From: a virus | Lineage: Duplodnaviria > Heunggongvirae > Uroviricota > Caudoviricetes | Length of the DNA: 48,141 bases | Strand: one strand, 5' to 3' | Virus record (IMG/VR): IMGVR_UViG_2675903658_000004 | Part shown: one piece after another, positions 5,169 through 39,271 of the stretch | How positions within the stretch are numbered: position 1 is the stretch's first letter | How the letters are laid out: every line of letters starts with the position of its first letter | Notes under the pieces: model-generated | The model's database searches: none | What the model was told of the DNA's origin: nothing | The model's input: only the letters and a program-made list of their open reading frames with translations | Program-made: the position numbers and the translations under genes

Positions 5169-5321
5169 TCAGTGGTTGTCATACCTGGTCTCTCTCATCT
5201 GCTTCTGCTTTCGCCACCATCATTTCCAGCTTTTGTGAAAGGGATGTGGCTAACGTATGAAATTCTTTGAACCGCCCCGGGAATCCTGGAGACTAAACTT
5301 CCTGAGAAAGAGGTAAACAGG

Positions 5322-5648
5322 ATGACTAAAAATACTCGTTTTTCCCCCGAAGTCCGTCAACGGGCAGTCCGTATGGTTCTGGAAAGTCAGAGCGAATATG
5401 ACTCACAATGGGCGACAATTTGTTCCATTGCTCCAAAGATTGGCTGTACGCCGGAGACTCTGCGTGTCTGGGTTCGCCAGCATGAGCGGGATACCGGGGG
5501 CGGTGATGGAGGGCTCACCACCGCTGAACGTCAGCGTCTGAAAGAGCTGGAACGTGAAAATCGTGAACTGCGCTGCAGTAACGATATCCTTCGCCAGGCT
5601 TCCGCTTATTTTGCGAAGGCGGAGTTCGACCGCCTCTGGAAAAAATGA
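5322..5648 (+). CDS. IS629 OrfA (HTH transposase subunit)
   Basis: 108-aa ORF with HTH and leucine-zipper-like region; ends in an A-run where orfB overlaps in the -1 frame. Confidence 0.9.
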
Positions 5649-6535
5649 TGCCACTGCTGGATAAGCTGCGTGAGCAGTACGGGGTCGGACCGCTATGCAG
5701 CGAACTGCATATTGCCCCGTCAACGTATTACCACTGTCAGCAACAGCGACATCATCCGGATAAACGCAGTGCCCGTGCGCAGCGCGATGACTGGCTGAAG
5801 AAAGAGATACAGCGCGTATACGATGAAAATCACAAGGTATACGGTGTGCGTAAAGTCTGGCGTCAGTTGTTACGGGAAGGTATCAGAGTGGCCAGATGCA
5901 CTGTGGCACGTCTCATGGCGGTTATGGGACTTGCCGGTGTTCTCCGGGGTAAAAAGGTCCGTACGACCATCAGCCGGAAAGCCGTTGCCGCAGGCGACCG
6001 CGTAAACCGTCAGTTCGTGGCAGAACGACCTGACCAGCTGTGGGTGGCTGATTTTACTTACGTCAGCACATGGCGGGGCTTCGTCTATGTGGCGTTCATC
6101 ATTGATGTGTTTGCCGGATACATCGTGGGGTGGCGGGTCTCATCGTCCATGGAAACGACATTCGTGCTGGATGCACTGGAGCAGGCGTTATGGGCCCGTC
6201 GACCGTCCGGCACGGTCCATCACAGTGATAAAGGTTCTCAGTATGTATCGCTGGCCTACACACAGCGGCTTAAGGAAGCCGGATTACTGGCATCAACAGG
6301 AAGTACAGGCGACTCGTATGACAACGCGATGGCGGAGAGCATCAATGGTCTTTACAAAGCGGAGGTAATACACCGTAAGAGCTGGAAAAACCGTGCAGAA
6401 GTGGAACTGGCCACACTCACGTGGGTGGACTGGTATAACAATCGACGATTGCTGGAAAGGCTGGGCCATACTCCTCCGGCAGAAGCAGAAAAAGCTTATT
6501 ATGCTTCCATCGGAAACGATGATCTGGCAGCCTGA
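5645..6535 (+). CDS. IS629 OrfB (DDE integrase-core transposase)
   Basis: 296-aa ORF with an rve/DDE core; -1 frame relative to orfA. Confidence 0.9.
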
Positions 6536-6655
6536 GTTCACAGATAAAACACTCTCCAGGAAACCCGGGGCGGTTCACTTCGTCTGTTTCTACTGGTATT
6601 GGCACAAACCTGACTCCAATTTGAGCAAGGCTATGTGCCATCTCAATACTCGTTC

Positions 6656-6838
6656 TTAACTCAACAGGAGATGCTTTGTGCATACCGCCTCCCGTTTATT
6701 ATTTATCTTCTCAGCCAGCCGCTGTGCTTTCAGTGGATTTCTGATAACAGAAAGGCCGGGAAATACCCAGCCTCGCTTTGTAACGGAGTAGACGAAAGTG
6801 ATCGCGCCTACCCGGATATTATCGTGAGGATGCGTCAT
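6656..6838 (-). CDS. hypothetical small protein downstream of exo
   Basis: ORF 6656..6844 trimmed to the ATG whose first base overlaps the exo stop. Confidence 0.35.
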   Translation of the reverse strand: MTHPHDNIRVGAITFVYSVTKRGWVFPGLSVIRNPLKAQRLAEKINNKREAVCTKHLLLS

Positions 6839-7515
6839 CACCATTGCTCCCCAAATACAAAACTAATTTCAGCCAGTGCCTCGTCCATTTTTTCGATGAA
6901 CTCCGGCACCATCTCGTCAAAACTCGCCATGTACTTTTCATCCCGCTCAACCACGACATAATGCAGTCCTTCACGCTTCATACGCGGGTCATAGTTGGCA
7001 AAGTACCAGGCATCTTTTCGCGTCACCCACATGCTGTACTGCACCTGGGCCATGTAAGCCGATTTTATGGCCTCGAAACCACCGAGCCGGAACTTCATGA
7101 AATCCCGGGAGGTAAACGGGCATTTCAGCTCAAGGCCGTTGCCGTCACTGCATAAACCATCGGGAGAGCAGGCGGTGCGCATACTTTCGTCGCGATAGAT
7201 GATCGGGGATTCAGTAACATTCACGCCGGAAGTAAACTCAAACAGGGCTCTGGCGTCGTTCTCGTACTGTTTTCCCCAAGCCAGCGCCTTAGCGTTAACT
7301 TCCGGAGCCACACCGGTGCAAACCTCAGCAAGCAGGGTGTGGAAGTAGGACATTTTCATGTCAGGCCATTTCTTTCCGGAGCGGGGTTTTGCTATCACGT
7401 TGTGAACTTCTGAAGCGGTGATGACGCCGAGCCGTAATTTGTGCCATGCATCATCCCCCTGTTCGACAGCTCTCACGTCGATCCCGGTACGCTGCAGGAT
7501 AATGTCCGGTGTCAT
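6838..7515 (-). CDS. exo: lambda exonuclease (Red-alpha)
   Basis: 225-aa protein near-identical to recalled lambda Exo; immediately downstream of bet. Confidence 0.95.
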
Positions 7516-8297
7516 GCTGCCACCTTCTGCTCAGTGGCTTTCTGTTTCAGGAATCCAAGAGCTTTCACTGCTTCGGCCTGTGTCAGTTCTGACGATGCGC
7601 GAATGTCGCGGCGAAATATCTGGGAACAGAGCGGCAATAAGTCGTCATCCCATGTTTTATCCAGGGCGATCAGCAGAGTGTTAATCTCCTGCATGGTTTC
7701 ATCGTTAACCGGAGTGATGTCGCGTTCCGGCTGACGTTCTGCAGTGTATGCGGTATTTTCGACAATGCGCTCGGCTTCATCCTTGTCATAGATACCAGCA
7801 AATCCGAAGGCGAGACGGGCACACTGAATCATGGCTTTATGCCGTAACATCCGTTTGGGATGCGACTGCCACGGCCCCGTGATTTCTCTGCCTTCGCGGG
7901 TTTTGAATGGTTCGCGGCGGCATTCATCCATCCACTCGGTAACGCAGATCGGATGATTGCGGTCTTTGCGGTAAATCCGGCATGTACATGATTCATTGTC
8001 CTGCTCAAAGTCCATACCATCAAACTGCTGGTTTTCATTGATGATGCGGGACCAGCCATCAACGCCCACCACCGGAACAATGCCGTTCTGCTTATCAGGG
8101 AAGGCGTAAATTTCTTTCGTCCACGGATTAAGGCCGTACTGGTTGGCGACGATCAACAATGCGATGAACTGCGCATCGCTGGCATCACCTTTAAATGCCG
8201 TCTGGCGAAGAGTGGTGATCAGTTCCTGTGGGTCGACAGAATCCATGCCGACACGTTCAGCCAGCTTCCCTGCCAGCGTTGCGAGTGCTGTACTCAT
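7512..8297 (-). CDS. bet: Red-beta single-strand annealing recombinase
   Basis: 261-aa protein matching recalled lambda Bet. Confidence 0.95.
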
Positions 8298-8302
8298 CCG
8301 TT

Positions 8303-8599
8303 TTATACCTCTGAATCAATATCAGCCTGATGGTGAGCAATGGTTTCAACTATGTACCGGATGTGTTCTGCCATGCGCTCCTGAAACTCAACATCGTCAT
8401 CAAACGCACGGGTAATGGCTTTTTTGCTGGCCCCGTGGCGTTGTAAATGATCGATGCATAGCGATTCAAACAGGTGCTGGGGCAGGCCTTTTTCCATGTC
8501 GTCTGCCAGTTCTGCCTCTTTCTCTTCACGGGCGATCTGCTGGTAGTGACGCGCCCAGCTCTGAGCCTCAAGACGATCCTGAATGTAATAAGCGTTCAT
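8303..8599 (-). CDS. gam: Gam (RecBCD inhibitor), short form
   Basis: 98-aa ORF beginning [21 protein letters not shown], matching the lambda GamS sequence. Confidence 0.9.
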
Positions 8600-8674
8600 G
8601 GCTGAACTCCTGAAAATGGCTGTGAAAATATCGCCCGCGAAATGCCAGGCTGATTAGGAAAACAGGAAAGGGGG

Positions 8675-8818
8675 TTAGTGAATGCTTTTGCTTGATCTCA
8701 GTTTCAGTATTAATATCCATTTTTTATAAGCGTCGACGGCCTCACGAAACATCTTTTCATCGCCAATAAAAGTGGCGATAGTGAATTTAGTCTGGATAGC
8801 CATAATTGTTTGATCCAT
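8675..8818 (-). CDS. kil: Kil (host cell-division inhibitor)
   Basis: Internal ATG of ORF 8675..8944 gives a 47-aa [22 protein letters not shown]... product matching lambda Kil. Confidence 0.85.
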
Positions 8819-8951
8819 TTTTTGGGACTCCTGGCTGATTAAGTATGTCGATAAGGCGTTTCCATCCGTCACGTAATTTACGGGTGATTCGTTCAAGTAA
8901 AGATTCGGAAGGGCAGCCAGCAACAGGCCACCCTGCAATGGCATATTGCAT
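8787..8951 (-). CDS. cIII: CIII (FtsH protease inhibitor)
   Basis: Not in the ORF track (under 60 aa); hand translation from the ATG at 8951 gives [54 protein letters not shown], matching lambda CIII; overlaps the kil start. Confidence 0.85.
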   Translation of the reverse strand: MQYAIAGWPVAGCPSESLLERITRKLRDGWKRLIDILNQPGVPKNGSNNYGYPD

Positions 8952-9023
8952 GGTGTGCTCCTTATTTATACATAACGAAAAACGCCTCGAGTGAAGCGTA
9001 ATTGGTATGCGGTAACGCCGCGC

Positions 9024-9392
9024 TCAGGCGGCCTTGATAGTCATATCATCTGAATCAAATATTCCTGATGTATCGATATCGGTAATTCTTATTCCTTCAC
9101 TACCATCCATTGGAGGCCATCCTTCCTGACCATTTCCATCATTCCAGTCGAACTCACACACAACACCATATGCATTTAAGTCGCTTGAAATTGCTATAAG
9201 CAGAGCATGTTGCGCCAGCATGATTAATACAGCATTTAATACAGAGCCGTGTTTATTGAGTCGGTATTCAGAGTCTGACCAGAAATTATTAATCTGGTGA
9301 AGTTTTTCCTCTGTCATTACGTCATGGTCAATTTCAATTTCTATTGATGCTTTCCAGTCGTAATCAATGATGTATTTTTTGATGTTTGACAT
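9024..9392 (-). CDS. ea10: Ea10-like early protein
   Basis: 122-aa ORF matching recalled lambda Ea10; correct position between cIII and ral. Confidence 0.8.
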   Translation of the reverse strand: MSNIKKYIIDYDWKASIEIEIDHDVMTEEKLHQINNFWSDSEYRLNKHGSVLNAVLIMLAQHALLIAISSDLNAYGVVCEFDWNDGNGQEGWPPMDGSEGIRITDIDTSGIFDSDDMTIKAA

Positions 9393-9574
9393 CTATTCAT
9401 ATCCTCATAGATAAAAAATCGCCCTCACACTGGAGGGCAAAGAAGATTTCCAATAATCAGAACAAGTCGGCTCCTGTTTAGTTACGAGCGACATTGCTCC
9501 GTGTATTCACTCGTTGGAATGAATACACAGTGCAGTGTTTATTCTGTTATTTATGCCAAAAATAAAGGCCACTA

Positions 9575-9775
9575 TCAGGCAGCTTTGTTGTTCTGTTTAC
9601 CAAGTTCTCTGGCAATCATTGCCGTCGTTCGTATTGCCCATTTATCGACATATTTCCCATCTTCCATTACAGGAAACATTTCTTCAGGCTTAACCATGCA
9701 TTCCGATTGCAGCTTGCATCCATTGCATCGTTTGAATTGTCCACACCATTGATTTGTATCAATAGTCGTAGTCAT
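9575..9775 (-). CDS. ral: Ral (restriction alleviation protein)
   Basis: 66-aa MTTTIDTNQWCGQFKRCNGCKLQSECMV... matching lambda Ral. Confidence 0.9.
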   Translation of the reverse strand: MTTTIDTNQWCGQFKRCNGCKLQSECMVKPEEMFPVMEDGKYVDKWAIRTTAMIARELGKQNNKAA

Positions 9776-9845
9776 ACGGATAGTCCTGGTATTGTTCCAT
9801 CACATCTTGAGGATGCTCTTCGAACTCTTCAAATTCTTCTTCCAT
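9759..9845 (-). CDS. 28-codon acidic ORF upstream of ral (MEEEFEEFEEHPQDVMEQYQDYPYDYDY)
   Basis: Hand-translated; ATG at 9845, TGA at 9759-9761, overlaps the ral start; identity with a lambda small ORF is only from uncertain memory. Confidence 0.3.
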   Translation of the reverse strand: MEEEFEEFEEHPQDVMEQYQDYPYDYDY

Positions 9846-9988
9846 ATATCACCTTAAATAGTGGATTGCGGTAGTAAAGATTGTGCCTGTCTTTTAACCA
9901 CATCAGGCTCGGTGGTTCTCGTGTACCCCTACAACGAGAAATCGGATAAACTCTATTCACCCCTACAGAGAGCAAAAGAGAAACGCCG

Positions 9989-10570
9989 ATGAACAACTCA
10001 TGGTGGCAGGAACTAATGCATTTTTTCCTGCAAGGAATGACACTTAAACAGTTGATTCATATGCTAATCATCCTGATCATATTGATTATTGTTATGCCGG
10101 TAAGCGTAAAAGAATGGATAAACCTGCATAGTCCAGAAATCCTTCCTCATTACTGGATGTATTACATCCTGTTGTTTTGCGTTAGCTATGTGCTTAACGG
10201 CGTTGTTAATTCCGCTTATCACGCTGTGACTGAAAGAATTGAGGTATTCGCTGCTCAGAAGCGCAAATCTAAAGAAGAAAAATATGTGCAAGATTTGTTT
10301 GATTCGTTAACTCTTGGAGAAAGAGCGTATTTGGCATTCGCTGTAGCCGCTAATAACCAGCTACAAACGGAAAAGGGCGCTCATGAATCAATTTCATTGC
10401 TCAAAAAAGGACTCCTCGTTCGAAGGCCTCCTGCTGTTGGATATCCTGATACCGACCGTTTCGTTATCCCTGAAAGCTATAGACATGAGTGCTACATTAG
10501 GTTTGCCGGGAAGGCAGACAGCCTTATGGATGAACTTATCGCTCAGGATAAGCATGGCAAAAACAAGTAA
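9989..10570 (+). CDS. sieB: SieB superinfection exclusion protein
   Basis: 193-aa protein with an N-terminal hydrophobic segment, matching recalled lambda SieB; opposite strand to the pL operon as in lambda. Confidence 0.9.
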   Translation: MNNSWWQELMHFFLQGMTLKQLIHMLIILIILIIVMPVSVKEWINLHSPEILPHYWMYYILLFCVSYVLNGVVNSAYHAVTERIEVFAAQKRKSKEEKYVQDLFDSLTLGERAYLAFAVAANNQLQTEKGAHESISLLKKGLLVRRPPAVGYPDTDRFVIPESYRHECYIRFAGKADSLMDELIAQDKHGKNK

Positions 10571-10586
10571 TTAGCAAATGAATTTA

Positions 10587-10859
10587 TCATCTCGCCGTCA
10601 GTTGTTTTGATTTCCGGTAGCCTGCCGCGTAAAGAGCTACGTTCGGAAGACAAGTTGAACCTTCATATTTTCTGGTCAACGTTGTCAGAGTTATCACTTC
10701 TGCTCTCATTGCTGGTTTGAGCTTGCATTGCAAGACCACTCGTGAAGGGGTTGGCCTGTGTAGCTTGTCGGAGCTGATCGCCTCCTGACTTTGCAGATTT
10801 GCGCGACGAGCTCTACGGCGAGAAGCTGCGGTGCCTTTAAATTCTGTTTTTCTGGACAT
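10587..10859 (-). CDS. N: N-like transcription antitermination protein (non-lambda specificity type)
   Basis: Arg-rich N-terminus (TAASRRRARRANLQ) and a C-terminus ...CLPNVALYAAGYRKSKQLTAR recalled from H-19B/933W-type N; ATG at 10859 preceded by GGAGG; ORF track start at 10931 is probably too far upstream. Confidence 0.7.
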   Translation of the reverse strand: MSRKTEFKGTAASRRRARRANLQSQEAISSDKLHRPTPSRVVLQCKLKPAMRAEVITLTTLTRKYEGSTCLPNVALYAAGYRKSKQLTAR

Positions 10860-10971
10860 GGATTCCTCCCGAATAAACTTTGGCGATGCAATCTCGAAGC
10901 TCCTCCTGAGACGGTTGCTTCGGCATTGCATCCCACAGCTTATGTGGTTGGGTGATCTGGCTTTTCAGCCA

Positions 10972-11002
10972 CGTAGTCGAGAGTCGACGTTGTTTAAAGA
11001 GC
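10972..11002 (-). promoter_or_regulatory. putative nutL (boxA-like GCTCTTTAAACAA plus boxB-like hairpin)
   Basis: Minus-strand GCTCTTTAAACAA followed by a GTCGA/TCGAC hairpin and TACG; the same architecture recurs at nutR (13639..13666). Confidence 0.45.
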
Positions 11003-11019
11003 CTGCCAGTCTGTTCCAT

Positions 11020-11110
11020 TTGGCTTCCAGCGTCCTGCTGACGGTTAAATAGTACGATATGTACTTTACAAGATCAATACAATTTGTTGTAAGTTGGCGT
11101 GGTTTTTTAT
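11020..11110 (-). promoter_or_regulatory. probable oL/pL region
   Basis: Intergenic, AT-rich, upstream of N; contains the palindrome AGTACGATATGTACT (11051..11065) and TTACAA...TTGTAA inverted repeats; operators not resolved. Confidence 0.35.
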
Positions 11111-11270
11111 AACGCTTTGTATTTAATAGTGTTGTTTTTTAGCGTGGATGTATTGCCTCGGCGATGTAAGGAGAGATCAGAATTGCGTGGTTTAGTGGGT
11201 TGCATCTATTTATTTTTCAATAAATATAATTGGTTATGTGTTTTTAGGTGGGCGAACGTGAGGCAAAGAA

Positions 11271-11292
11271 AACCCGGCGCTGAGGCCGGGTT
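11271..11292 (-). terminator. rho-independent terminator ending the cI/rex-slot operon
   Basis: Perfect 8-bp stem AACCCGGC/GCCGGGTT with a 6-nt loop, followed on the minus strand by UUUUCUUUG (plus 11262..11270); lies 4 nt past the 250-aa ORF stop. Confidence 0.55.
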
Positions 11293-11295
11293 GTA

Positions 11296-12048
11296 TTATG
11301 CTGCAAGTCTCTTAACCCAAGTCTCTCTTTTGGAGAATGGTAGAACTTGGCTTGATTCATGGAAGAGTAAGGAGAGTTGTTGCATTTGATCACCAATTGC
11401 TTCGCTGTCTATAACAACAAATCTGTTGTTATACTCCTCACTTGAAGCTTTAAGATCAATTAGTTTCCCAAGCAATGAGTAAGCACTATTCCAGCTTCCT
11501 CCGTGTTTCACGCTTGATGTAAAAACGTATTTAGGTATGTCGGTTTTTATTGTTACAGGGACGGTAATTTGATGTCCACTCAAGCCATATACGTTTTCAC
11601 GAAGAGAAAGTGCGTCTCTAAGCTCTGTGTGATATAGATAATCAATAACCATACTTTCAAACTTTTCAGCTTGAACTGGCTGATACCAGTCTAACGACAA
11701 AGTTGATGCGAGTATACCAGCTCTAATTATGTTCGATGTAATCGCACCGACATCCTTTTCTGTTGCCCAAGCAATGATTTCTCCTCGAGCATTGAGTTCT
11801 GCGCCTTCTTTAAGCAGTAATTGTCGTATCTCATCAAGTCGTTTTTTGGTAAGCGAGATCCCTCTTGCCTCCATATTCATTAAGGCATCGCATCTGTCAC
11901 TAACTAAATACCTACCATTGACTTCACGGATAAAGGCACCGACATGCTCTCCATCATCACAGTAAGTGAATGGACTGATAATTCTCAAGGTCTTGCCTAT
12001 TGGATGGCATTCGAAACCTAGTTGTGAGATCACTGTTGAGCACATCAT
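11296..12048 (-). CDS. hypothetical protein, rex-slot gene 2 (250 aa), candidate defence/exclusion component
   Basis: ATG at 12048 overlaps the upstream stop in an ATGA arrangement; AT-rich; no recognisable motif; occupies the rexB position. Confidence 0.6.
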   Translation of the reverse strand: MMCSTVISQLGFECHPIGKTLRIISPFTYCDDGEHVGAFIREVNGRYLVSDRCDALMNMEARGISLTKKRLDEIRQLLLKEGAELNARGEIIAWATEKDVGAITSNIIRAGILASTLSLDWYQPVQAEKFESMVIDYLYHTELRDALSLRENVYGLSGHQITVPVTIKTDIPKYVFTSSVKHGGSWNSAYSLLGKLIDLKASSEEYNNRFVVIDSEAIGDQMQQLSLLFHESSQVLPFSKRETWVKRLAA

Positions 12049-12602
12049 ATTCCAAACCCCATTTGCCCCGACTCATCTTCAAGCGGTAAAGGTATTCTCC
12101 CAGAGTAAGTTATGTTCAGATGTTTACAGAAGTAATTCCAATACCCTACCAGGTCATCTGGGTTTATGTCATCTTCGATTGGAAACGCTATTCTATCACT
12201 ATAGTATCCAGCTTCTTCATAGTATACATGGTAGTGAGCACCGTAAATGATATCTTGGTACTTCGGATGATCGACCTTGTAACTATTCGTGTGTTTGTCA
12301 AAGTGATAGGTATCTACCGCGAAAACCCTCTTGTTATGATAGAAAGCAATAATATTTATTTTAGGGTAAGAAATCGGGTCATCAGGTTCTGAATCCTGAT
12401 CTGGTTTCCATTTCAGTTCAAACTTTAGCCCTTGTATAGGTATACAATCCTCATCCAAGGGGATGATATGGGCTTGTAGCCACATATCAGAGCGACTTGG
12501 TTTCTGTTTCCATTTAACGCCAGAAAAGTTAACTATTTTTTTACAATAAAGTACTTTATCAACTTCTACTTGGCTTGGCTGATAATCATCTATTTTTGCC
12601 AA
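12045..12602 (-). CDS. hypothetical protein, rex-slot gene 1 (185 aa), candidate defence/exclusion component
   Basis: Begins 39 nt downstream of the cI stop, same strand; annotated start is TTG (non-ATG), so the true start is uncertain; Tyr/His/Asp-rich, no TM segment seen. Confidence 0.55.
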   Translation of the reverse strand: MAKIDDYQPSQVEVDKVLYCKKIVNFSGVKWKQKPSRSDMWLQAHIIPLDEDCIPIQGLKFELKWKPDQDSEPDDPISYPKINIIAFYHNKRVFAVDTYHFDKHTNSYKVDHPKYQDIIYGAHYHVYYEEAGYYSDRIAFPIEDDINPDDLVGYWNYFCKHLNITYSGRIPLPLEDESGQMGFGI

Positions 12603-12641
12603 TGTTTACCGCCCTGTAAATTGTAGATAAAAGTGGTTTCA

Positions 12642-13301
12642 TCACCCAAACGTCTCTTCAGGCCATTGGCTGGCGATAACTTTCCCCACAACGGAACAAC
12701 TCTCATTGCATGGGATCATTGGGTATTGTGGGTTTAGTGGCTGTAGAAACACCTGACCGCTATCCCTGATCAGTTTCTTGAAGGTAAATTCATCACCACC
12801 AAGTCTGGCTATGCAGAAATCGCCGGGCTCAACAGCTTGCTCAGGGTCAACCAGAATTAACATCCCGTCAGGAAAGCTGGGTTTGGAACCTGTTGGTGCG
12901 GTCATTGAGTTACCTTCAACCTCAAGCCAGAATGCAGAGTCACTGGCTTTTTTGGTTGTGCTTACCAATCTCTCCGCATCGCCTTTGGTAAAGGTTCTGA
13001 GTTCTGGAGAGAACATCCCAGCCTGAACATGAGAAAAAACAGGGTACTCATATTGTTTTTTAACTGGGGCCGATGAGTATTCGCCAACAGGTGAAAATGT
13101 CCCGTCGTGGTTGAATGATATGTTATCAATACCAAGGTATTTAAACACCACACCAATATCACTAAGAGATGGATGACGAGATCCGCGCAACCAGTGTCCA
13201 ATCCCACCCTGCGTCATACCTAGCTCTTCGGCTAACTTCTCTTGAGTTATGCCGAGCTCTTTCATTCTGGATCTAGCCAGTTCATACCATTTCATTTTCA
13301 T
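12642..13301 (-). CDS. cI: CI-type prophage repressor (HTH plus S24/LexA-like autocleavage domain)
   Basis: N-terminal HTH ([22 protein letters not shown]), C-terminal GNSM...K motifs of S24 peptidases; divergent from cro across an operator region; start taken at an internal ATG. Confidence 0.85.
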
Positions 13302-13412
13302 GTCCTTATTATTACGCTCTGTACTGGAACCATCCATGCACAATGTGTATTTTTACTTGTATTCGCAAAGTACATATTGTATTTTTTTATTCGTGTTTAC
13401 TATGGAGGGCAT
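13302..13412. promoter_or_regulatory. oR/pRM/pR divergent promoter-operator region
   Basis: About 110-bp AT-rich intergenic region between divergent cI and cro; contains TACTTGTATTCGCAAAGTA-type partial inverted repeats; GGAGGG precedes the cro ATG. Confidence 0.5.
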
Positions 13413-13628
13413 ATGAGCAACCTACGAAAATATCGAGAGTCACTGAATATCTCTCAAACAACACTTGCTAAGGCAGTTGGATGCACACAGGGAGCTATCG
13501 GACATTGGGAATCTGGTCGTCGCTTCCCAGACCTTAAAACATGCCGTGCTCTTGTTGCGTGCCTAAACAAGTTAGGCGCAAAAGTCAGTCTTGATGACGT
13601 GTTCCCGCCGGAACACAAAGCCGCTTAA
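13413..13628 (+). CDS. cro: Cro-like HTH repressor
   Basis: 71-aa product from the internal ATG at 13413 (ORF track start 13242 is too far upstream); HTH QTTLAKAVGCTQGAIGHWESG. Confidence 0.8.
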   Translation: MSNLRKYRESLNISQTTLAKAVGCTQGAIGHWESGRRFPDLKTCRALVACLNKLGAKVSLDDVFPPEHKAA

Positions 13629-13638
13629 TAAGCGGATC

Positions 13639-13666
13639 CGCTCTTTGTAACAACGGACATTCGTCC
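13639..13666 (+). promoter_or_regulatory. putative nutR (boxA-like CGCTCTTTGTAACAA plus boxB-like hairpin GGACATTCGTCC)
   Basis: Located just downstream of cro; shares boxA + hairpin + TACG architecture with the nutL candidate. Confidence 0.45.
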
Positions 13667-13769
13667 TACGTCGCTGAAAAGCGAGTTCCAAGATATCTGA
13701 CCAACTAAGGCCATATGCGTTTCCACGCATACCTTTCAACTAACTATTCACTATTGGAAATCTTAAGAA

Positions 13770-14066
13770 ATGGAAAGAACAAGTTACAGCAAACTATCAC
13801 AGCGTGACGTTGATCGCGCAGAAACAGATTTACTTATCAATCTGTCAGCTATTACCCAGCGCGGTCTGGCAAAGATGATTGGCTGTCATGAATCGAAGAT
13901 AAGCAGAACGGACTGGAGATTTATTGCTTCGGTCTTGTGTGCTTTCGGAATGGCATCAGACATCAGTCCGATTAGCAGGGCTTTTAAGTATGCGCTTGAT
14001 GGACTCACCAATAAAAAACGCCCGGCGGCAACCGAGCGTTCTGAACAAATCCAGATGGAATTCTGA
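13770..14066 (+). CDS. cII: CII transcriptional activator
   Basis: C-terminus ...TNKKRPAATERSEQIQMEF matches lambda CII. Confidence 0.9.
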   Translation: MERTSYSKLSQRDVDRAETDLLINLSAITQRGLAKMIGCHESKISRTDWRFIASVLCAFGMASDISPISRAFKYALDGLTNKKRPAATERSEQIQMEF

Positions 14067-14088
14067 GGTCATTACTGGATCAATCCAC
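14012..14088 (-). ncRNA. oop: oop antisense RNA (putative)
   Basis: Minus-strand sequence matches recalled lambda OOP RNA, including the terminator GCCGCCGGGCG followed by UUUUUUAUU; antisense to the cII 3' end. Confidence 0.5.
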
Positions 14089-14446
14089 AGGAGTCATTAT
14101 GACAAATACAGCAAAAATACTCAACTTCTGCAGAGGTAACTTTGCCAAACAGGAGCGTAATGTGGCAGATCTCGATGATGGTTACGCCAGACTATCAAAT
14201 ATGCTGCTTGAGGCTTATTCAGGCGCAGATCTGACCAAGCGACAGTTTAAAGTGCTGCTTGCCATTCTGCGTAAAACCTATGGATGGAATAAACCAATGG
14301 ACAGAATCACCGATTCTCAACTTAGCGAGATTACAAAGTTACCCGTCAAACGGTGCAATGAAGCCAAGTTAGAACTCGTCAGAATGAATATTATCAAGCA
14401 GCAAGGCGGCATGTTTGGACCAAATAAAAACATCTCAGAATGGTGT

Positions 14447-14580
14447 ATCCCTCAAAACGAGGGAAAATCCCCTAAAACGAGGGATAAAACATCCCTCAAA
14501 TTGGGGGATTGCTATCCCTCAAAACAGGGGGACACAAAAGACACTATTACAAAAGAAAAAAGAAAAGATTATTCGTCAGA
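14447..14580. other. ori-lambda: four iterons (ATCCCTCAAAACGAGGGA-type) plus adjacent AT-rich segment
   Basis: Four tandem 18/19-bp iterons at about 14447-14531 followed by an A-rich stretch, inside the O coding region as in lambda. Confidence 0.8.
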
Positions 14581-14727
14581 GAATTCTGGCGAATCCTCTG
14601 ACCAGCCAGAAAACGACCTTTCTGTGGTGAAACCGGATGCTGCAATTCAGAGCGGCAGCAAGTGGGGGACAGCAGAAGACCTGACTGAACCGCCCCGGGT
14701 TTCCTGGAGAGTGTTTTATCTGTGAAC

Positions 14728-15618
14728 TCAGGCTGCCAGATCATCGTTTCCGATGGAAGCATAATAAGCTTTTTCTGCTTCTGCCGGAGGAGTATGGCCC
14801 AGCCTTTCCAGCAATCGTCGATTGTTATACCAGTCCACCCACGTGAGTGTGGCCAGTTCCACTTCTGCACGGTTTTTCCAGCTCTTACGGTGTATTACCT
14901 CCGCTTTGTAAAGACCATTGATGCTCTCCGCCATCGCGTTGTCATACGAGTCGCCTGTACTTCCTGTTGATGCCAGTAATCCGGCTTCCTTAAGCCGCTG
15001 TGTGTAGGCCAGCGATACATACTGAGAACCTTTATCACTGTGATGGACCGTGCCGGACGGTCGACGGGCCCATAACGCCTGCTCCAGTGCATCCAGCACG
15101 AATGTCGTTTCCATGGACGATGAGACCCGCCACCCCACGATGTATCCGGCAAACACATCAATGATGAACGCCACATAGACGAAGCCCCGCCATGTGCTGA
15201 CGTAAGTAAAATCAGCCACCCACAGCTGGTCAGGTCGTTCTGCCACGAACTGACGGTTTACGCGGTCGCCTGCGGCAACGGCTTTCCGGCTGATGGTCGT
15301 ACGGACCTTTTTACCCCGGAGAACACCGGCAAGTCCCATAACCGCCATGAGACGTGCCACAGTGCATCTGGCCACTCTGATACCTTCCCGTAACAACTGA
15401 CGCCAGACTTTACGCACACCGTATACCTTGTGATTTTCATCGTATACGCGCTGTATCTCTTTCTTCAGCCAGTCATCGCGCTGCGCACGGGCACTGCGTT
15501 TATCCGGATGATGTCGCTGTTGCTGACAGTGGTAATACGTTGACGGGGCAATATGCAGTTCGCTGCATAGCGGTCCGACCCCGTACTGCTCACGCAGCTT
15601 ATCCAGCAGTGGCATCAT
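14728..15618 (-). CDS. IS629 OrfB transposase
   Basis: Protein identical to copy 1 OrfB. Confidence 0.9.
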
Positions 15619-15941
15619 TTTTTCCAGAGGCGGTCGAACTCCGCCTTCGCAAAATAAGCGGAAGCCTGGCGAAGGATATCGTTACTGCAGCGCAGTTCAC
15701 GATTTTCACGTTCCAGCTCTTTCAGACGCTGACGTTCAGCGGTGGTGAGCCCTCCATCACCGCCCCCGGTATCCCGCTCATGCTGGCGAACCCAGACACG
15801 CAGAGTCTCCGGCGTACAGCCAATCTTTGGAGCAATGGAACAAATTGTCGCCCATTGTGAGTCATATTCGCTCTGACTTTCCAGAACCATACGGACTGCC
15901 CGTTGACGGACTTCGGGGGAAAAACGAGTATTTTTAGTCAT
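15615..15941 (-). CDS. IS629 OrfA
   Basis: Protein identical to copy 1 OrfA. Confidence 0.9.
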
Positions 15942-16307
15942 CCTGTTTACCTCTTTCTCAGGAAGTTTAGTCTCCAGGATTCCCGGGGCGGTTCAGACCG
16001 CCGCAGAATGGATGTTTGACATGGTGAAGACCATCGCGCCATCAGCCAGAAAACCGAATTTTGCAGGGTGGGCTAACGATATCCGCCTGATGCGTGAACG
16101 TGACGGACGTAACCATCGCGACATGTGTGTACTGTTCCGCTGGGCATGCCAGGACAACTTCTGGTCCGGTAACGTGCTGAGCCCGGCCAAACTCCGCGAC
16201 AAGTGGACCCAGCTCGAAATCAACCGTAACAAGCAACAGGCAGGTGTGACAGCCTGCAAACCAAAACTCGACCTGACAAACACTGACTGGATTTACGGGG
16301 TGGATTT

Positions 16308-17009
16308 ATGAAAAACATCGCCGCACAGATGGTTAATTTTGACCGTGAGCAGATGCGTCGGATCGCCAACAACATGCCGGAACAGTACGACGAAAAGCCG
16401 CAGGTACAGCAGGTAGCGCAGATCATCAACGGTGTGTTCAGCCAGTTACTGGCAACTTTCCCGGCGAGTCTGGCTAACCGTGACCAGAACGAACTGAACG
16501 AAATCCGCCGCCAGTGGGTTCTGGCTTTCCGGGAAAACGGGATCACCACAATGGAACAGGTTAACGCAGGAATGCGCGTAGCCCGTCGGCAGAATCGACC
16601 ATTTCTGCCATCACCCGGGCAGTTTGTTGCATGGTGCCGGGAAGAAGCATCCGTTATCGCCGGACTGCCAAACGTCAGCGAGCTGGTTGATATGGTTTAC
16701 GAGTATTGCCGGAAGCGAGGCCTGTATCCGGATGCAGAGTCTTATCCGTGGAAATCGAACGCGCACTACTGGCTGGTTACCAACCTGTACCAGAACATGC
16801 GGGCCAATGCGCTGACTGACGCGGAATTACGACGCAAGGCTGCCGATGAACTGACCTGTATGACAGCGCGAATTAACCGTGGTGAGACGATACCTGAACC
16901 AGTAAAACAACTTCCTGTCATGGGCGGCAGACCTCTAAATCGTGTTCAGGCGCTGGCGAAGATCGCAGAAATTAAAGCTAAGTTAGGACTGAAAGGAGCA
17001 AGTGTATGA
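16308..17009 (+). CDS. P: replication protein P (DnaB helicase loader)
   Basis: 233-aa protein matching recalled lambda P. Confidence 0.95.
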   Translation: MKNIAAQMVNFDREQMRRIANNMPEQYDEKPQVQQVAQIINGVFSQLLATFPASLANRDQNELNEIRRQWVLAFRENGITTMEQVNAGMRVARRQNRPFLPSPGQFVAWCREEASVIAGLPNVSELVDMVYEYCRKRGLYPDAESYPWKSNAHYWLVTNLYQNMRANALTDAELRRKAADELTCMTARINRGETIPEPVKQLPVMGGRPLNRVQALAKIAEIKAKLGLKGASV

Positions 17010-17296
17010 CGGGCAAAGAGGCAATTATTCATTACCTGGGGACGCATAATAGCTTCTGTGCGCCGGACGTTGCCGCGCTAACAGGCGCAACAGTAACCAG
17101 CATAAATCAGGCCGCGGCTAAAATGGCACGGGCAGGTCTTCTGGTTATCGAAGGTAAGGTCTGGCGAACGGTGTATTACCGGTTTGCTACCAAGGAAGAA
17201 CGGGAAGGAAAGATGAGCACGAACCTGATTTTTAAGGAGTGTCGCCAGAGTGCCACGATGAAACGGATATTGGCGGTATATGGAGTTAAAAGATGA
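17006..17296 (+). CDS. ren: Ren exclusion protein
   Basis: 96-aa protein matching recalled lambda Ren. Confidence 0.85.
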   Translation: MTGKEAIIHYLGTHNSFCAPDVAALTGATVTSINQAAAKMARAGLLVIEGKVWRTVYYRFATKEEREGKMSTNLIFKECRQSATMKRILAVYGVKR

Positions 17297-17369
17297 CCAT
17301 CTACATCACTGAGCTAATAACAGGCCTGCAGGTAATCGCAGGCCTTTTTATTTGGGGGAGAGGGAAGTC

Positions 17370-17810
17370 ATGAAAAAACTAACCTTTGAAATTCGATCTC
17401 CGGCACATCAGCAAAACGCTATTCACGCAGTACAGCAAATCCTTCCAGACCCAACCAAACCAATCGTAGTAACCATTCAGGAACGCAACCGCAGCTTAGA
17501 CCAAAACAGGAAGCTATGGGCCTGCTTAGGTGACGTCTCTCGTCAGGTTGAATGGCATGGTCGCTGGCTGGATGCAGAAAGCTGGAAGTGTGTGTTTACC
17601 GCAGCATTAAAGCAGCAGGATGTTGTTCCTAACCTTGCCGGGAATGGCTTTGTGGTAATAGGCCAGTCAACCAGCAGGATGCGTGTAAGCGAATTTGCGG
17701 AGCTATTAGAGCTTATACAGGCATTCGGTACAGAGCGTGGCGTTAAGTGGTCAGACGAAGCGCGACTGGCTCTCGAATGGAAAGCGCGATGGGGAGATCG
17801 GGCTGCATGA
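17370..17810 (+). CDS. ninB: NinB (Orf family recombination mediator)
   Basis: MKKLTFEIRSPAHQQNAIHAVQQILPDP... matches lambda NinB; ATG at 17370. Confidence 0.9.
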   Translation: MKKLTFEIRSPAHQQNAIHAVQQILPDPTKPIVVTIQERNRSLDQNRKLWACLGDVSRQVEWHGRWLDAESWKCVFTAALKQQDVVPNLAGNGFVVIGQSTSRMRVSEFAELLELIQAFGTERGVKWSDEARLALEWKARWGDRAA

Positions 17811-29367: not shown

Positions 29368-30862
29368 TCTTTCACACATTATTGCCGCAGCATTCAATGA
29401 ACCGCTGCTTCTGGAGCCCGCCTATGCGCGGGTTTTCTTTTGCGCGCTCGGGCGCGAGATGGGGGCAGCAAGTCTTTCGGTACCACAACAGCAGGTACAG
29501 TTTGATGCTCCCGGAATGCTGGCTGAAACGGACGAGTACATGGCCGGAGGTAAACGACCGGCCCGTGTTTACCGGGTGGTGAACGGTATTGCTGTACTGC
29601 CGGTGACCGGCACGCTGGTGCACCGGCTGGGTGGTATGCGGCCATTTTCCGGAATGACAGGCTATGACGGCATTGTCGCCTGTCTTCAGCAGGCAATGGC
29701 GGATAGCCAGGTGCGGGGCGTACTGCTGGACATTGACAGTCCGGGCGGGCAGGCCGCCGGCGCGTTTGACTGCGCTGACATGATTTACCGCCTCCGTCAG
29801 CAGAAGCCGGTCTGGGCACTGTGCAATGACACGGCCTGTTCTGCAGCCATGCTGCTGGCGTCGGCCTGCTCCCGACGGCTGGTTACCCAGACATCCCGTA
29901 TCGGCTCCATTGGCGTGATGATGAGCCATGTCAGCTATGCCGGTCATCTGGCGCAGGCCGGTGTGGATATCACGCTGATTTACTCAGGGGCGCACAAGGT
30001 GGATGGCAATCAGTTTGAAGCGTTGCCGGCAGAGGTTCGCCAGGACATGCAGCAGCGGATTGATGCGGCGCGCCGGATGTTTGCCGAAAAAGTGGCGATG
30101 TATACCGGTCTGTCTGTTGATGCCGTCACGGGAACAGAGGCTGCCGTTTTTGAAGGTCAGTCCGGCATTGAGGCCGGGCTGGCGGATGAATTAATCAATG
30201 CGTCGGATGCCATCAGTGTGATGGCCACGGCGCTGAACAGTAATGTCAGAGGAGGCACTATGCCGCAATTAACTGCAACGGAAGCCGCCGCGCAGGAGAA
30301 CCAGCGAGTGATGGGGATCCTGACATGCCAGGAAGCGAAAGGACGTGAACAGCTTGCCACGATGCTGGCAGGACAACAGGGCATGAGCGTTGAACAGGCC
30401 CGGGCGATTCTGGCCGCGGCGGCACCGCAGCAGCCGGTGGCATCCACGCAGAGTGAAGCCGATCGCATTATGGCGTGTGAAGAAGCGAACGGTCGTGAAC
30501 AACTGGCGGCAACGCTGGCGGCGATGCCGGAGATGACGGTGGAAAAAGCCCGCCCGATCCTGGCTGCTTCACCGCAGGCGGATGCCGGACCATCACTCCG
30601 TGATCAGATCATGGCACTGGATGAGGCAAAAGGGGCTGAGGCGCAGGCTGAACAGCTGGCTGCCTGCCCGGGAATGACAGTGGAGAGCGCCCGGGCTGTG
30701 CTGGCTGCGGGATCAGGTAAGGCAGAACCGGTCTCTGCATCCACAACCGCCATGTTTGAACATTTCATGGCGAACCATTCACCGGCAGCGGTACAGGGTG
30801 GCGTGGCACAGACGTCAGCAGACGGTGATGCGGACGTGAAAATGCTCATGGCCATGCCATGA
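29357..30862 (+). CDS. C: head maturation protease C (S49/ClpP-like) with nested Nu3-like scaffold region
   Basis: N-terminal region matches lambda gpC; C-terminal region carries three tandem copies of a scaffold-like motif. Confidence 0.85.
   Translation: MRRNLSHIIAAAFNEPLLLEPAYARVFFCALGREMGAASLSVPQQQVQFDAPGMLAETDEYMAGGKRPARVYRVVNGIAVLPVTGTLVHRLGGMRPFSGMTGYDGIVACLQQAMADSQVRGVLLDIDSPGGQAAGAFDCADMIYRLRQQKPVWALCNDTACSAAMLLASACSRRLVTQTSRIGSIGVMMSHVSYAGHLAQAGVDITLIYSGAHKVDGNQFEALPAEVRQDMQQRIDAARRMFAEKVAMYTGLSVDAVTGTEAAVFEGQSGIEAGLADELINASDAISVMATALNSNVRGGTMPQLTATEAAAQENQRVMGILTCQEAKGREQLATMLAGQQGMSVEQARAILAAAAPQQPVASTQSEADRIMACEEANGREQLAATLAAMPEMTVEKARPILAASPQADAGPSLRDQIMALDEAKGAEAQAEQLAACPGMTVESARAVLAAGSGKAEPVSASTTAMFEHFMANHSPAAVQGGVAQTSADGDADVKMLMAMP
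30305..30725 (+). repeat. three tandem in-frame repeats (about 40-50 codons each) inside the C/Nu3 region
   Basis: Protein segments MGILTCQEAKGREQLATMLAGQQGMSVEQARAILAA / IMACEEANGREQLAATLAAMPEMTVEKARPILAA / IMALDEAKGAEAQAEQLAACPGMTVESARAVLAA. Confidence 0.6.
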
Positions 30863-30898
30863 AGTCAGTGCTGACCATCAATAGGAGGTTTTTACAAT

Positions 30899-31246
30899 AT
30901 GGTGACGAAAACCATCACTGAACAGCGTGCGGAAGTACGTATTTTTGCCGGTAATGATCCGGCTCATACCGCCACAGGCAGCAGCGGGATTTCCTCGCCA
31001 ACACCGGCACTGACGCCCCTGATGCTGGATGAAGCCACCGGGAAACTGGTGGTCTGGGACGGACAGAAAGCCGGTAGTGCGGTTGGCATACTGGTACTGC
31101 CGCTTGAAGGCACAGAGACGGCGCTGACGTATTACAAGTCGGGAACCTTTGCGACGGAGGCAATCCACTGGCCTGAAAGTGTGGATGAACACAAAAAGGC
31201 CAACGCCTTTGCTGGCAGTGCCCTGAGTCACGCGGCGCTGCCGTAA
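30899..31246 (+). CDS. D: head decoration protein D
   Basis: 115-aa protein matching recalled lambda gpD. Confidence 0.9.
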   Translation: MVTKTITEQRAEVRIFAGNDPAHTATGSSGISSPTPALTPLMLDEATGKLVVWDGQKAGSAVGILVLPLEGTETALTYYKSGTFATEAIHWPESVDEHKKANAFAGSALSHAALP

Positions 31247-31303
31247 CACGTTATCAGGCCACCGCGGTGGCCTGACTGATTTCTGAATGAAAGGAACTGA
31301 TTT

Positions 31304-32332
31304 ATGGGATTGTTTACGACCCGCCAGTTACTCGGTTATACCGAACAAAAAGTTAAATTCCGTGCGCTGTTTCTGGAGCTGTTTTTCCGCCGTACGGTGA
31401 ATTTCCATACCGAAGAGGTGATGCTGGACAAAATTACCGGAAAAACGCCGGTGGCGGCCTATGTCTCCCCGGTTGTTGAAGGAAAAGTGCTGCGTCATCG
31501 TGGTGGTGAAACCCGCGTGTTGCGTCCGGGCTACGTCAAGCCGAAACACGAATTTAATTACCAGCAGGCGGTTGAGCGCCTTCCTGGTGAAGATCCATCT
31601 CAACTGAATGATCCGGCTTACCGCCGTCTGCGTATCATTACCGATAACCTCAAACAGGAAGAGCACGCGATTGTCCAGGTGGAAGAAATGCAGGCGGTAA
31701 ATGCTGTGTTGTATGGCAAATACACCATGGAAGGAGACCAGTTCGAGAAAATTGAGGTCGATTTTGGCAGGTCGACGAAGAATAACATCACTCAGGGTAG
31801 TGGTAAGGAGTGGTCAAAACAGGATCGTGACACGTTCGATCCTACACATGATATTGACCTCTACTGCGACCTGGCCAGCGGTCTTGTGAATATTGCCATT
31901 ATGGACGGTACCGTCTGGCGTCTTCTGAATGGTTTTAAGCTGTTCCGCGAAAAACTGGATACCCGTCGCGGTTCAAATTCTCAACTCGAAACGGCAGTGA
32001 AAGATCTGGGCGCAGTGGTGTCCTTCAAGGGGTATTACGGCGATCTGGCCATTGTGGTGGCGAAAACGTCTTATGTGGCAGAGGACGGTACCGAAAAACG
32101 TTATCTGCCGGAGGGCACACTGGTCCTGGGGAATACGGCAGCAGAGGGCATTCGTTGCTATGGTGCCATTCAGGATGCGCAGGCGTTGTCCGAAGGTGTG
32201 GTGGCCTCTTCCCGTTATCCGAAACACTGGCTGACTGTGGGCGATCCGGCCCGTGAATTCACCATGACGCAGTCCGCACCGCTGATGGTGTTGCCGGACC
32301 CGGATGAGTTTGTGGTGGTACAGGTGAAATAA
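31304..32332 (+). CDS. E: major capsid protein E
   Basis: 342-aa protein matching recalled lambda gpE. Confidence 0.95.
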   Translation: MGLFTTRQLLGYTEQKVKFRALFLELFFRRTVNFHTEEVMLDKITGKTPVAAYVSPVVEGKVLRHRGGETRVLRPGYVKPKHEFNYQQAVERLPGEDPSQLNDPAYRRLRIITDNLKQEEHAIVQVEEMQAVNAVLYGKYTMEGDQFEKIEVDFGRSTKNNITQGSGKEWSKQDRDTFDPTHDIDLYCDLASGLVNIAIMDGTVWRLLNGFKLFREKLDTRRGSNSQLETAVKDLGAVVSFKGYYGDLAIVVAKTSYVAEDGTEKRYLPEGTLVLGNTAAEGIRCYGAIQDAQALSEGVVASSRYPKHWLTVGDPAREFTMTQSAPLMVLPDPDEFVVVQVK

Positions 32333-32758: not shown

Positions 32759-33104
32759 TTTTCAGAATGCCTTTGATGCCGCCCTTGCCGGGGTGGACAG
32801 TACGATTGTTGAAGTGATGGGCATCAGTGCGCAGTTCACCTCCGGTGCACAGCGTGGCGGCGAGGTTCATGGCGTTTTTGACGATCCGGAGTCGCTGGGT
32901 TTTGCCAGTAGTGGGATCCGTATTGAAGGAAGTAACCCGTCATTATTTGTGCTTACGGATACGGTTTGTGCTGTACGGCGTGGTGACACGCTGACCATTA
33001 ACGGCGAGATGTTCTGGGTGGACCGTGTTTCTCCGGATGACGGAGGGAGTTGTTATCTCTGGCTCAACCGGGGGCAACCACCTGCCGCCAGCCGTCGCCG
33101 CTGA
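32751..33104 (+). CDS. FII: head completion protein FII
   Basis: C-terminus ...FWVDRVSPDDGGSCYLWL... matches lambda gpFII; ATG at 32751. Confidence 0.85.
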   Translation: MRDFQNAFDAALAGVDSTIVEVMGISAQFTSGAQRGGEVHGVFDDPESLGFASSGIRIEGSNPSLFVLTDTVCAVRRGDTLTINGEMFWVDRVSPDDGGSCYLWLNRGQPPAASRRR

Positions 33105-33115
33105 AAGGGGGATGT

Positions 33116-33694: not shown

Positions 33695-34086
33695 AACATA
33701 CTGAATTCCGTGCAGCCGTACTGGATGCACTGGAAAAACATGACACCGGGGCGACGCTTTTTGATGGTCGCCCCGCTGTTTTTGATGAGGCGGATTTTCC
33801 GGCAATTGCCGTTTATCTCACCGGCGCTGAATACACGGGCGAAGAGCTGGACAGCGATACCTGGCAGGCGGAGCTGCATATTGAAGTTTTCCTGCCTGCT
33901 CAGGTGCCGGATTCAGAGCTGGATTCGTGGATGGAAAGCCGGATTTATCCGGCGATGAGCGATATCCCGGCACTGTCAGATTTGATCACCAGTATGGTGG
34001 CCAGTGGCTATGACTACCGGCGCGACGATGATGCGGGCCTGTGGAGTTCAGCCGATCTGACTTATGTCATTACCTATGAAATGTGA
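33691..34086 (+). CDS. U: tail tube terminator U
   Basis: 131-aa protein matching recalled lambda gpU. Confidence 0.9.
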
Positions 34087-34093
34087 GGACGAT

Positions 34094-34834: not shown

Positions 34835-34849
34835 TCCGGAGAGTCAGCG

Positions 34850-39266: not shown

Positions 39267-39271
39267 ATCCC

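Follow-up and report, generated by a model that had tools for sequence, protein, structure and literature searches.

An N antiterminator of the P22/H-19B family and its candidate GNRA-tetraloop boxB elements in a partly lambda-like prophage

Introduction

The 48,141-nucleotide (nt) viral sequence IMGVR_UViG_2675903658_000004 (Caudoviricetes; the whole stretch analyzed is here called the window) is a lambdoid prophage with its genes in prophage order, and N, the first gene of its leftward early operon, lies downstream of the promoter pL and the nutL site and adjoins the cI/cro immunity region. A preliminary description of this DNA had proposed that N and its nut sites are of a type foreign to lambda and were exchanged together. 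The locus raises three questions: to which class of antiterminator N belongs, which RNA element in the nut sites it would recognize, and whether protein and sites are matched in the way a cognate pair should be. Our combined results make it very probable (roughly 85%) that the window carries a complete N/nut module for processive antitermination, of the P22/H-19B protein family, which entered a partly lambda-like prophage by exchange along with a non-lambda immunity region.

Results

N is a P22/H-19B family protein

The minus-strand open reading frame (ORF) that terminates at 10587, with the C terminus ...CLPNVALYAAGYRKSKQLTAR, encodes a member of the P22/H-19B N family: it matches the Pfam profile PF25694 (N_peptide) with E = 9.7e-33 and 113.1 bits (cut-off, 27.9) over profile positions 3-100 of 100. 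Translation most likely starts at the ATG at 10859, giving a protein of 90 amino acids (aa), rather than at 10931 (114 aa), because residue 23 of the 114-aa ORF is where the Pfam match sets in, homologues begin with M[ST]R[RK]T (in fuller form, M[ST]R[RK]TxFxG), GGAGG lies 5 nt upstream of the ATG, and newer records (PV340574) annotate a 273-nt gene. An identical N (100%) is encoded by phages ev207, ev017, and PhiR63_2, and the protein is 98.9% identical to N of YYZ-2008 and the PA-series Shiga toxin 2 (Stx2) phages, with values of about 99% for many Stx phages; the allele was found in about 90 phage records of the collection searched. Identity to the 127-aa N of Phi24B, 933W-like, BP-4795, and mEp234 phages is about 41%, with 37 gap positions, and in the phage collection this 41% group stands clearly apart from a group at 84-100%. 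A PDB sequence search with N, covering chains of at least 20 residues, gave zero matches.

The view of N as a non-lambda protein held up. When N was compared pairwise with lambda N, only the arginine-rich motif (ARM) aligned (21.9 bits, E = 8e-4), with a recognizable similarity of AASRRRARRANLQSQ against AQTRRRERRAEKQAQ (9/15 positions by eye on the pairwise alignment), and the window N has no equivalent of Trp18. An identity with lambda N was rejected on this ARM-only alignment, on the tetraloop form of boxB described below, and on the lack of any lambda DNA match at 9968..11171 and 13052..14004.

The further assignment to the H-19B/933W type, made from the C terminus, stood for that terminus and not for the rest of the protein. 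The last 27 residues of H-19B N (101-127) form its RNA-polymerase-binding C-terminal domain, and 12-RSRRRER-18 is its RNA-binding ARM (PMC3526286). The C-terminal 21 residues of the window N, CLPNVA[LI]YAAGYRKSKQLTAR, are common to N of the H-19B/933W/HK97 type (21/21 identical to mEp234 N and 20/21 to Phi24B N), but they do not discriminate between N types, because P22-type (Lambda_2E9) and HK620-type (HK140) N bear them as well. The ARM of the window N (residues ~9-25, GTAASRRRARRANLQSQ) aligns with the H-19B-type motif but reads SRRRARRANLQ, not RSRRRERLKAKALA. Given this ARM, a boxB loop of GAAA rather than GACAA at both nut sites, the 41% identity, and the length of 90 versus 127 aa, membership of the H-19B/933W type in the strict sense was rejected.

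Both nut sites carry a GAAA-capped hairpin downstream of the elements first described

The boxA-like sequences, short hairpins, and TACG that had been described at nutL and nutR are all present. The boxA sequences, GCUCUUUA at nutL and GCUCUUUG at nutR, lie upstream of boxB and compare with UGCUCUUUA for rrn boxA and CGCUCUUA for lambda boxA (PMC2724277). The intervals originally assigned to the two sites (nutL, 10972..11002; nutR, 13639..13666) enclose these elements but end just short of a further hairpin, a 5-bp stem with a GAAA loop, which lies directly 3' of the common UACG and which we consider the likely boxB. The pattern TSGCTGNAAAGCSA has two matches in the whole window, which are these two hairpins (chance mean, 0.39); both lie in the transcribed orientation, one ~70 nt past the inferred pL start and the other 43 nt past the cro stop, and between nutL and nutR their stems differ by one compensatory change from G-C to C-G. 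The records inspected gave no nut-site annotation for this N allele. Rfam holds no nut-site family, and an Rfam scan of the window returned just three ALIL pseudoknots and the cIII thermometer.

The preliminary description had instead taken the short hairpins beside boxA (GUCGA-CUC-UCGAC at nutL and GGAC-AUUC-GUCC at nutR) for the boxB bound by N. These hairpins do occupy a lambda-boxB-like position, a few nucleotides past boxA, and they appear in minimum-energy folds; nevertheless, we regard this identification as very improbable. Within one phage the two hairpins have neither stem nor loop in common, so that one ARM would hardly recognize both, and their loops are not GNRA-like. Among IMG/VR relatives whose N is 98-100% identical, the nutL loop is polymorphic (CTC in 47, ACAC in 20, ACTC in 13, and ATC in 1, plus one longer-stem variant), while the nutR region of the window is homologous to that of Phi24B and mEp234 and contains an identical GGAC-AUUC-GUCC hairpin even though N of those phages has another ARM; there, it is the boxB loop that differs, by one C. 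The Phi24B record annotates nutL and nutR, and these annotations reach the downstream hairpin, with 3' ends at the homologous GCGCU-GACAA-AGCGC and UCGCU-GACAA-AGCGA, which by their sequence are P22-type boxB hairpins. The elements beside boxA are better described as spacer hairpins. They are not conserved between the two sites, an outcome that the preliminary description had itself named as refuting its proposal, whereas the neighboring GAAA hairpins are, and it is because of the latter that the proposal of N/nut co-exchange still holds.

The boxB helix is supported by compensatory changes

Fourteen nut sites from seven phages or prophages (E. coli, Shigella, Salmonella, Citrobacter, Enterobacter, Kluyvera, and an Enterobacteriaceae genome) were examined for covariation. 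All 65 pair cells of the 5-bp boxB stem are standard pairs (100%), and each of the two outer pairs occurs as three pair types (UA/AU/CG and GC/CG/AU), as expected of compensatory changes, while the three inner pairs, the preceding CUACG, and the loop are invariant save for one GCAA. The covariation score was reached by 0/500 shuffles, and no slid register comes close to it. RNAalifold, applied to 16 nut sites of eight phages that included two GACAA sites, predicts precisely this helix and no other, with 0 broken pairs. Support for boxB is comparative, thermodynamic folding by itself giving no significant result.

The ARM of N predicts the loop of boxB

We classed 169 loci encoding N with an M[ST]R[RK]TxF[KN]G start by their ARM, the RRA class being RRR[AE][RH]RA..[LVM]Q and the RLK class the RRRERLK of H-19B. 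Loci of the RRA class have GAAA at 131 nutL sites (GCAA at 1) and at 123 nutR sites; those of the RLK class have GACAA at 29 nutL and 33 nutR sites. The ARM class thus matches the loop type in 161/161 nutL and 156/156 nutR sites, with no discordant locus among the 169, and the claim that N is matched with cognate nut sites is borne out, although through the GAAA hairpins and not through those first named.

Such an association could in principle be neutral hitch-hiking by linkage within the module, with either N class able to work on either loop: the loci share a phylogenetic history, and the elements of the module lie close together. P22 N, moreover, is reported to tolerate various GNRA-like loops (Cocozaki et al., 2008). 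We judge this explanation unlikely. The nutR site lies 1.3-3.7 kb from N, across variable and freely recombining immunity genes, and no mismatch was seen at either site. Of 19 cro clusters, five hold both ARM classes, with the loop matching N every time. Among the nutR contexts are some that match everywhere but in boxB, where each has the loop suited to the ARM of its own N. A 120-aa N of Salmonella S135, Enterobacter, and Kluyvera has an H-19B-like middle region and an RRA-class ARM together with GAAA loops, which indicates that the loop follows the ARM and not the remainder of N. The distance of nutR, the mixed cro clusters, the contexts differing only in boxB, and this 120-aa N together make linkage alone an unlikely cause. 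P22-type ARMs accompany GACAA, and HK620-type ARMs accompany a CCCGC-CGAAAU-GCGGG hairpin; as far as these sequences show, a rule of one ARM to one loop is general in the PF25694 family.

Two sets of loci call for separate comment. N in two Lonsdalea britannica loci has a P22-type ARM, a CLPNVAIYAAGHRK core, and an extra lambda-N-like C-terminal tail (...CRGTQKFKGKSIPLI), with a GACAA boxB at nutL; this composition suggests mosaicism inside the N gene itself. E. coli-type lambdoid N/nut sequences also turned up under unrelated organisms, in two contigs binned as a Segatella copri metagenome-assembled genome and in a 394-bp contig assigned to Xanthomonas pisi; contamination or mis-binning in those assemblies is the most likely cause.

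The spacer hairpin and UACG are conserved in position

A G...C-closed hairpin stands directly before UACG in 18/18 sites examined, formed by four unrelated stems (GUCGA, GGAC, GGCC, and GAUUCA). In near-identical phages, the nutL hairpin varies in its loop but retains its stem, and the nutR region is nearly invariant. RNAalifold on the 16 sites missed this hairpin, its stems of unequal length being misaligned, and support for it comes from per-sequence analysis. These observations support a structural role for the spacer hairpin. An extended ACG...CGU pairing around it was considered and dropped, as the S135-type nutL does not preserve it.

It is therefore worth considering a tripartite nut site, in which the covarying spacer hairpin and UACG would be required in their own right; this would extend the module reading given above and is not exclusive of it. 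Possible roles are the presentation of a NusA-binding spacer, a block to Rho loading, or a toggle with boxA:boxB pairing. The lambda spacer is bound by NusA, and roles have been described for both boxA and spacer (PMC2724277); H-19B nutR has two hairpins, and its spacer is protected by N with NusA/NusG and by Rho (PMC3526286). In the window (10955..11004 on the minus strand and 13638..13687 on the plus strand), a pairing of boxA GCUCUUU with AAAAGC, the 3' half of boxB, is possible around the spacer hairpin, and the resulting fold is iso-energetic with the two-hairpin fold or slightly better (at nutR, -11.9 versus -11.7 kcal/mol). This pairing is not general, however, and is probably incidental, because several relatives have no boxA; a conserved switch of this kind was rated unlikely in general on the same ground. 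Conservation of a hairpin, moreover, does not show that it is required. On balance, a tripartite site seems a real possibility, if still short of an even bet.

No recognizable GCUCUUU boxA occurs at either nut site of four relatives or at nutL of two more; just ...ACAAC precedes the spacer hairpin. This lack of boxA may fit the reduced host-factor requirement that the title of a paper by Neely and Friedman (2000) names for H-19B.

The module lies in a mosaic of lambda-like and foreign DNA

The N-to-cII stretch (10400..14100) is 100% identical in DNA to phages ev207, ev017, PhiR57_1, and PhiR63_2 and, the genes intervening between N and cI excepted, about 95.5% identical to many Stx phages, including YYZ-2008, 1717, 2851, Nil2, and Stx2 II. 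Comparison with lambda (Table 1) bears out only in part the characterization of the genome as otherwise lambda-like, which is apt for exo to ral, for cII-O-P-ren, and for the tail genes but not for the head genes, at just 66-68% identity; the change from head to tail genes is a sharp mosaic junction. In the same way, the immunity region is non-lambda in the N-terminal half of cI, the operators, and cro, but the C-terminal half of cI is 93% lambda-like.

On the minus strand, the order is pL, nutL, leader, and N. A consensus promoter scan did not report pL (8/12 score), which was instead placed by homology and by the AP005153 annotation; the transcript start, at ~11042, was placed by homology to lambda ATCAGCAGGACGC. 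The long and very stable leader hairpin between boxB and the N ribosome-binding site may correspond to the RNase III-sensitive structure in the leader of lambda N, whose processing by that enzyme controls N translation. A lambda cIII RNA thermometer (Rfam RF01804, 88.5 bits) lies at 8906..8964 (minus strand) in the lambda-like left arm.

At the lambda rexA/rexB position, between pL and cI, two overlapping genes on the minus strand encode a DUF1828 protein (250 aa) and a DUF6978-like protein (185 aa), a pair that matches the PADLOC candidate defense system PDC-M24 (B, E = 4.7e-10; A, E = 4.8e-4); the content of this slot varies among phages with the same N and immunity region. Three identical 1,310-bp copies of an IS3-family insertion sequence (IS) element (5268..6577, 14686..15995, and 46187..47496), each with an ALIL frameshift pseudoknot, are present in the window. 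The middle copy splits the replication gene O, which is intact in PhiR63_2, and its junction in O was found at 100% identity in E. coli O2:H1 HM670 and three further human isolates. The prophage is thus IS-ridden and probably replication-defective.

Table 1. Positions of the N/nut elements and of the surrounding segments in the window, with the basis of each assignment and the match to lambda DNA
Feature	Position	Strand	Basis	Match to lambda DNA
N antiterminator gene, 90 aa	10587..10859	-	Pfam PF25694; homologue alignment; GGAGG	
Long hairpin of N leader, between boxB and N ribosome-binding site	10873..10943	-	Inverted repeat GATGCAATGCCGAAGC...GCTTCGAGATTGCATC; predicted fold of 10857..10957, -39.3 kcal/mol	
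nutL, layout 5' to 3': GCUCUUUAAACAAC (boxA and spacer start), GUCGA-cuc-UCGAC, UACG, UGGCU-GAAA-AGCCA	10958..11002	-		
nutL candidate boxB, UGGCU-GAAA-AGCCA (5-bp stem, GNRA tetraloop)	10958..10971	-	Pattern match, covariation, ARM-loop association	
nutL UACG linker, spacer hairpin to boxB	10972..10975	-	CTACG invariant in 16/16 aligned nut sites of 8 phages	
nutL spacer hairpin (DNA GTCGA-CTC-TCGAC)	10976..10988	-	Fold and per-sequence analysis	
nutL boxA GCUCUUUAAACAA (boxA-like GCTCTTTAAACAA), rrn type GCUCUUUA	10990..11002	-	Sequence	
Probable pL: -35 TTGATC (11072..11077), 17-nt spacer, -10 TACTAT (11049..11054)	11049..11077	-	Sequence; AP005153 -10/-35 annotation coincides after offset	
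cro, non-lambda allele, nutR directly downstream	13413..13628	+	HTH_3, E = 4e-12; Cro annotation in PV340574	None
nutR, layout 5' to 3': GCUCUUUGUAACAAC (boxA and spacer start), GGAC-auuc-GUCC, UACG, UCGCU-GAAA-AGCGA		+		
nutR boxA GCUCUUUGUAACAA (boxA-like GCTCTTTGTAACAA; GCUCUUUG)	13640..13653	+	Only zero-mismatch match to GCTCTTTNNAACAA in window	
nutR spacer hairpin (DNA GGAC-ATTC-GTCC)	13655..13666	+	Fold and per-sequence analysis	
nutR UACG linker	13667..13670	+	Directly after spacer hairpin	
nutR candidate boxB, UCGCU-GAAA-AGCGA (5-bp stem, GNRA tetraloop)	13671..13684	+	Pattern match, covariation, ARM-loop association	
exo to ral	6578..9968			97.7% identity
sieB, N, nutL, pL/oL	9968..11171			None
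Short terminator-bearing stretch directly downstream of DUF1828 gene	11171..11292			90% identity
Genes at rexAB position	11296..12602			None
cI C-terminal half	12641..13052			93% identity
cI N-terminal half, oR, cro, nutR, cII 5' part	13052..14004			None
cII-O-P-ren, IS-split	14004..14685 and 15996..17810			97-98.5% identity
Head genes	24952..32322			66-68% identity
Tail genes	32976..43141			95% identity

Discussion

Comparative analyses of the N/nut region of the window place its module in the P22/H-19B family and show a match of ARM and loop across related loci, with lambda, P22, and H-19B as the paradigms for how the module might act. The pL and pR transcripts would each present an rrn-type boxA (GCUCUUUA), a variable spacer hairpin, an invariant UACG, and a GAAA-capped 5-bp boxB. 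By analogy, boxA would be the NusB/NusE site, the ARM of N would bind the boxB tetraloop, NusA may contact the spacer and N, and the conserved C-terminal 21 residues of N would engage the RNA polymerase elongation complex. Polymerase modified by N and Nus factors would then read through early terminators, among them the region that directly follows nutR, a homologue of the stretch downstream of nutR in the H-19B-type phages Phi24B and mEp234, and intrinsic terminators of the left operon such as that at 9440..9419. Specificity is proposed to lie in the pairing of ARM and loop, the RRA class with a GNRA tetraloop and the H-19B/933W class with a P22-type GACAA pentaloop, which has one looped-out C more.

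The closest known systems differ from this module at the point where ARM and loop would meet. With the H-19B/933W/Phi24B/HK97 type, which has a 127-aa N, the window shares the Pfam family, the N-terminal M-x-R-x-T-x-F-x-G, the near-identical C terminus, a nut layout of ACAA, spacer hairpin, UACG, and a 5-bp boxB closed by U-A, and a homologous nutR-to-cII region that includes the spacer hairpin. However, its ARM is RRRARRANLQ rather than RRRERLKAKALA, the loop and length differ as given above, and its nutL has a consensus boxA, which nutL of Phi24B and mEp234 does not. P22 gp24 (N) belongs to the same protein family and has the same C terminus (as seen in Lambda_2E9 and an E. albertii P22-type N), and its boxB (GCGCU-GACAA-AGCGC, PDB 1A4T) has the same stem top, GCU...AGC, and a GNRA-type loop fold. 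Its loop, though, is a pentaloop with a looped-out C that touches the peptide (PMC12550061), whereas the window loop has no extra nucleotide, and the ARM differs (GNAKTRRHERRRKLAIER). The window module is a sister system to those of H-19B/933W and P22 and does not belong to the H-19B type.

Lambda shares the gene position and, as proposed for the window, the overall mechanism, but its N is similar in the ARM alone, its boxA is CGCUCUUA rather than the rrn-like GCUCUUUA of the window, and its pentaloop GAAAA has one A more than the window tetraloop. The 120-aa N of Salmonella S135 and of Enterobacter, Kluyvera, and Citrobacter prophages has the same class of ARM (G-S-A-[AS]-G-RRRERRAALQ) and a GAAA boxB at both nut sites; it differs in its H-19B-like middle region, and most of its nut sites have no recognizable boxA. 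Phage 21, compared through the published description of its boxB, has a CUAACC hexaloop (PDB 1NYB) that is likewise recognized by an ARM peptide as a GNRA-mimicking loop (PMC12550061) but is different in loop chemistry and length.

Several points weigh against the reading of the locus as a complete and matched antitermination module. Many of the 169 loci are near-duplicates, and the independent observations are far fewer, their number being roughly gauged by the 19 cro clusters and some 20 ARM variants. Folding of single 51-nt nut windows was no better than that of shuffled sequences (z = -0.14 and -0.41, not significant), and the spacer hairpins alone appeared; at nutL, the fold of lowest energy joins boxA to the 3' half of boxB (-14.1 versus -12.0 kcal/mol), and the boxB pair probabilities are ~0.04. 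The proposed mechanism gives no role to the spacer hairpin and UACG. The sequences themselves establish the family of N, the positions of the elements, the covariation of the helix, and the ARM-loop association, while ARM-boxB binding, the use of Nus factors, and antitermination itself are inferred by analogy. Finally, with three IS copies, one of them in O, the module might at present be unable to bring about a productive cycle in this host.

The exchange of an N/nut module is in itself ordinary, textbook modular exchange, comparable to that of the imm21 region. The form of boxB is less familiar. The boxB classes with solved structures are GNRA mimics with extra nucleotides: GAAAA or GAAGA in lambda, GACAA in P22, where the fold is GNRA-like and the C is looped out onto the peptide, and CUAACC in phage 21 (PMC12550061). 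A boxB with the sequence GCUGAAAAGC or GCTGAAAAGC in a nut context was not found in the searchable literature, although an earlier description in subscription literature is possible, and literature searches on Stx-phage nut sites and on tetraloop boxB gave nothing specific. We suggest, as a possibility somewhat less likely than not, that the natural boxB of RRA-class N is a bona fide GNRA tetraloop and that a one-nucleotide indel in the loop, with a change in the ARM (RRA..LQ versus RLKAKALA), acts as an orthogonality switch among co-circulating Stx and lambdoid phages. The extruded base of lambda boxB reportedly serves assembly of the NusA-dependent complex (Chattopadhyay et al., 1995; Legault et al., 1998). 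If the suggestion is correct, the absence of such a base might bring an altered dependence on NusA or on the spacer hairpin.

The present analysis provides a nut-site anatomy for a widespread N allele that numerous Stx2 and Stx1 phages of E. coli O157 possess, with a candidate boxB that is a plain GNRA tetraloop and that covaries tightly with a distinct arginine-rich motif. ARM and hairpin would make a minimal natural peptide-RNA specificity pair, one nucleotide of the loop separating it from the H-19B/P22 boxB, and such a pair may be of use for studying ARM-hairpin recognition and the contribution of the extruded base, as well as for orthogonal tethering. It would also bear on whether Stx prophages residing in the same cell can cross-activate each other's early operons.

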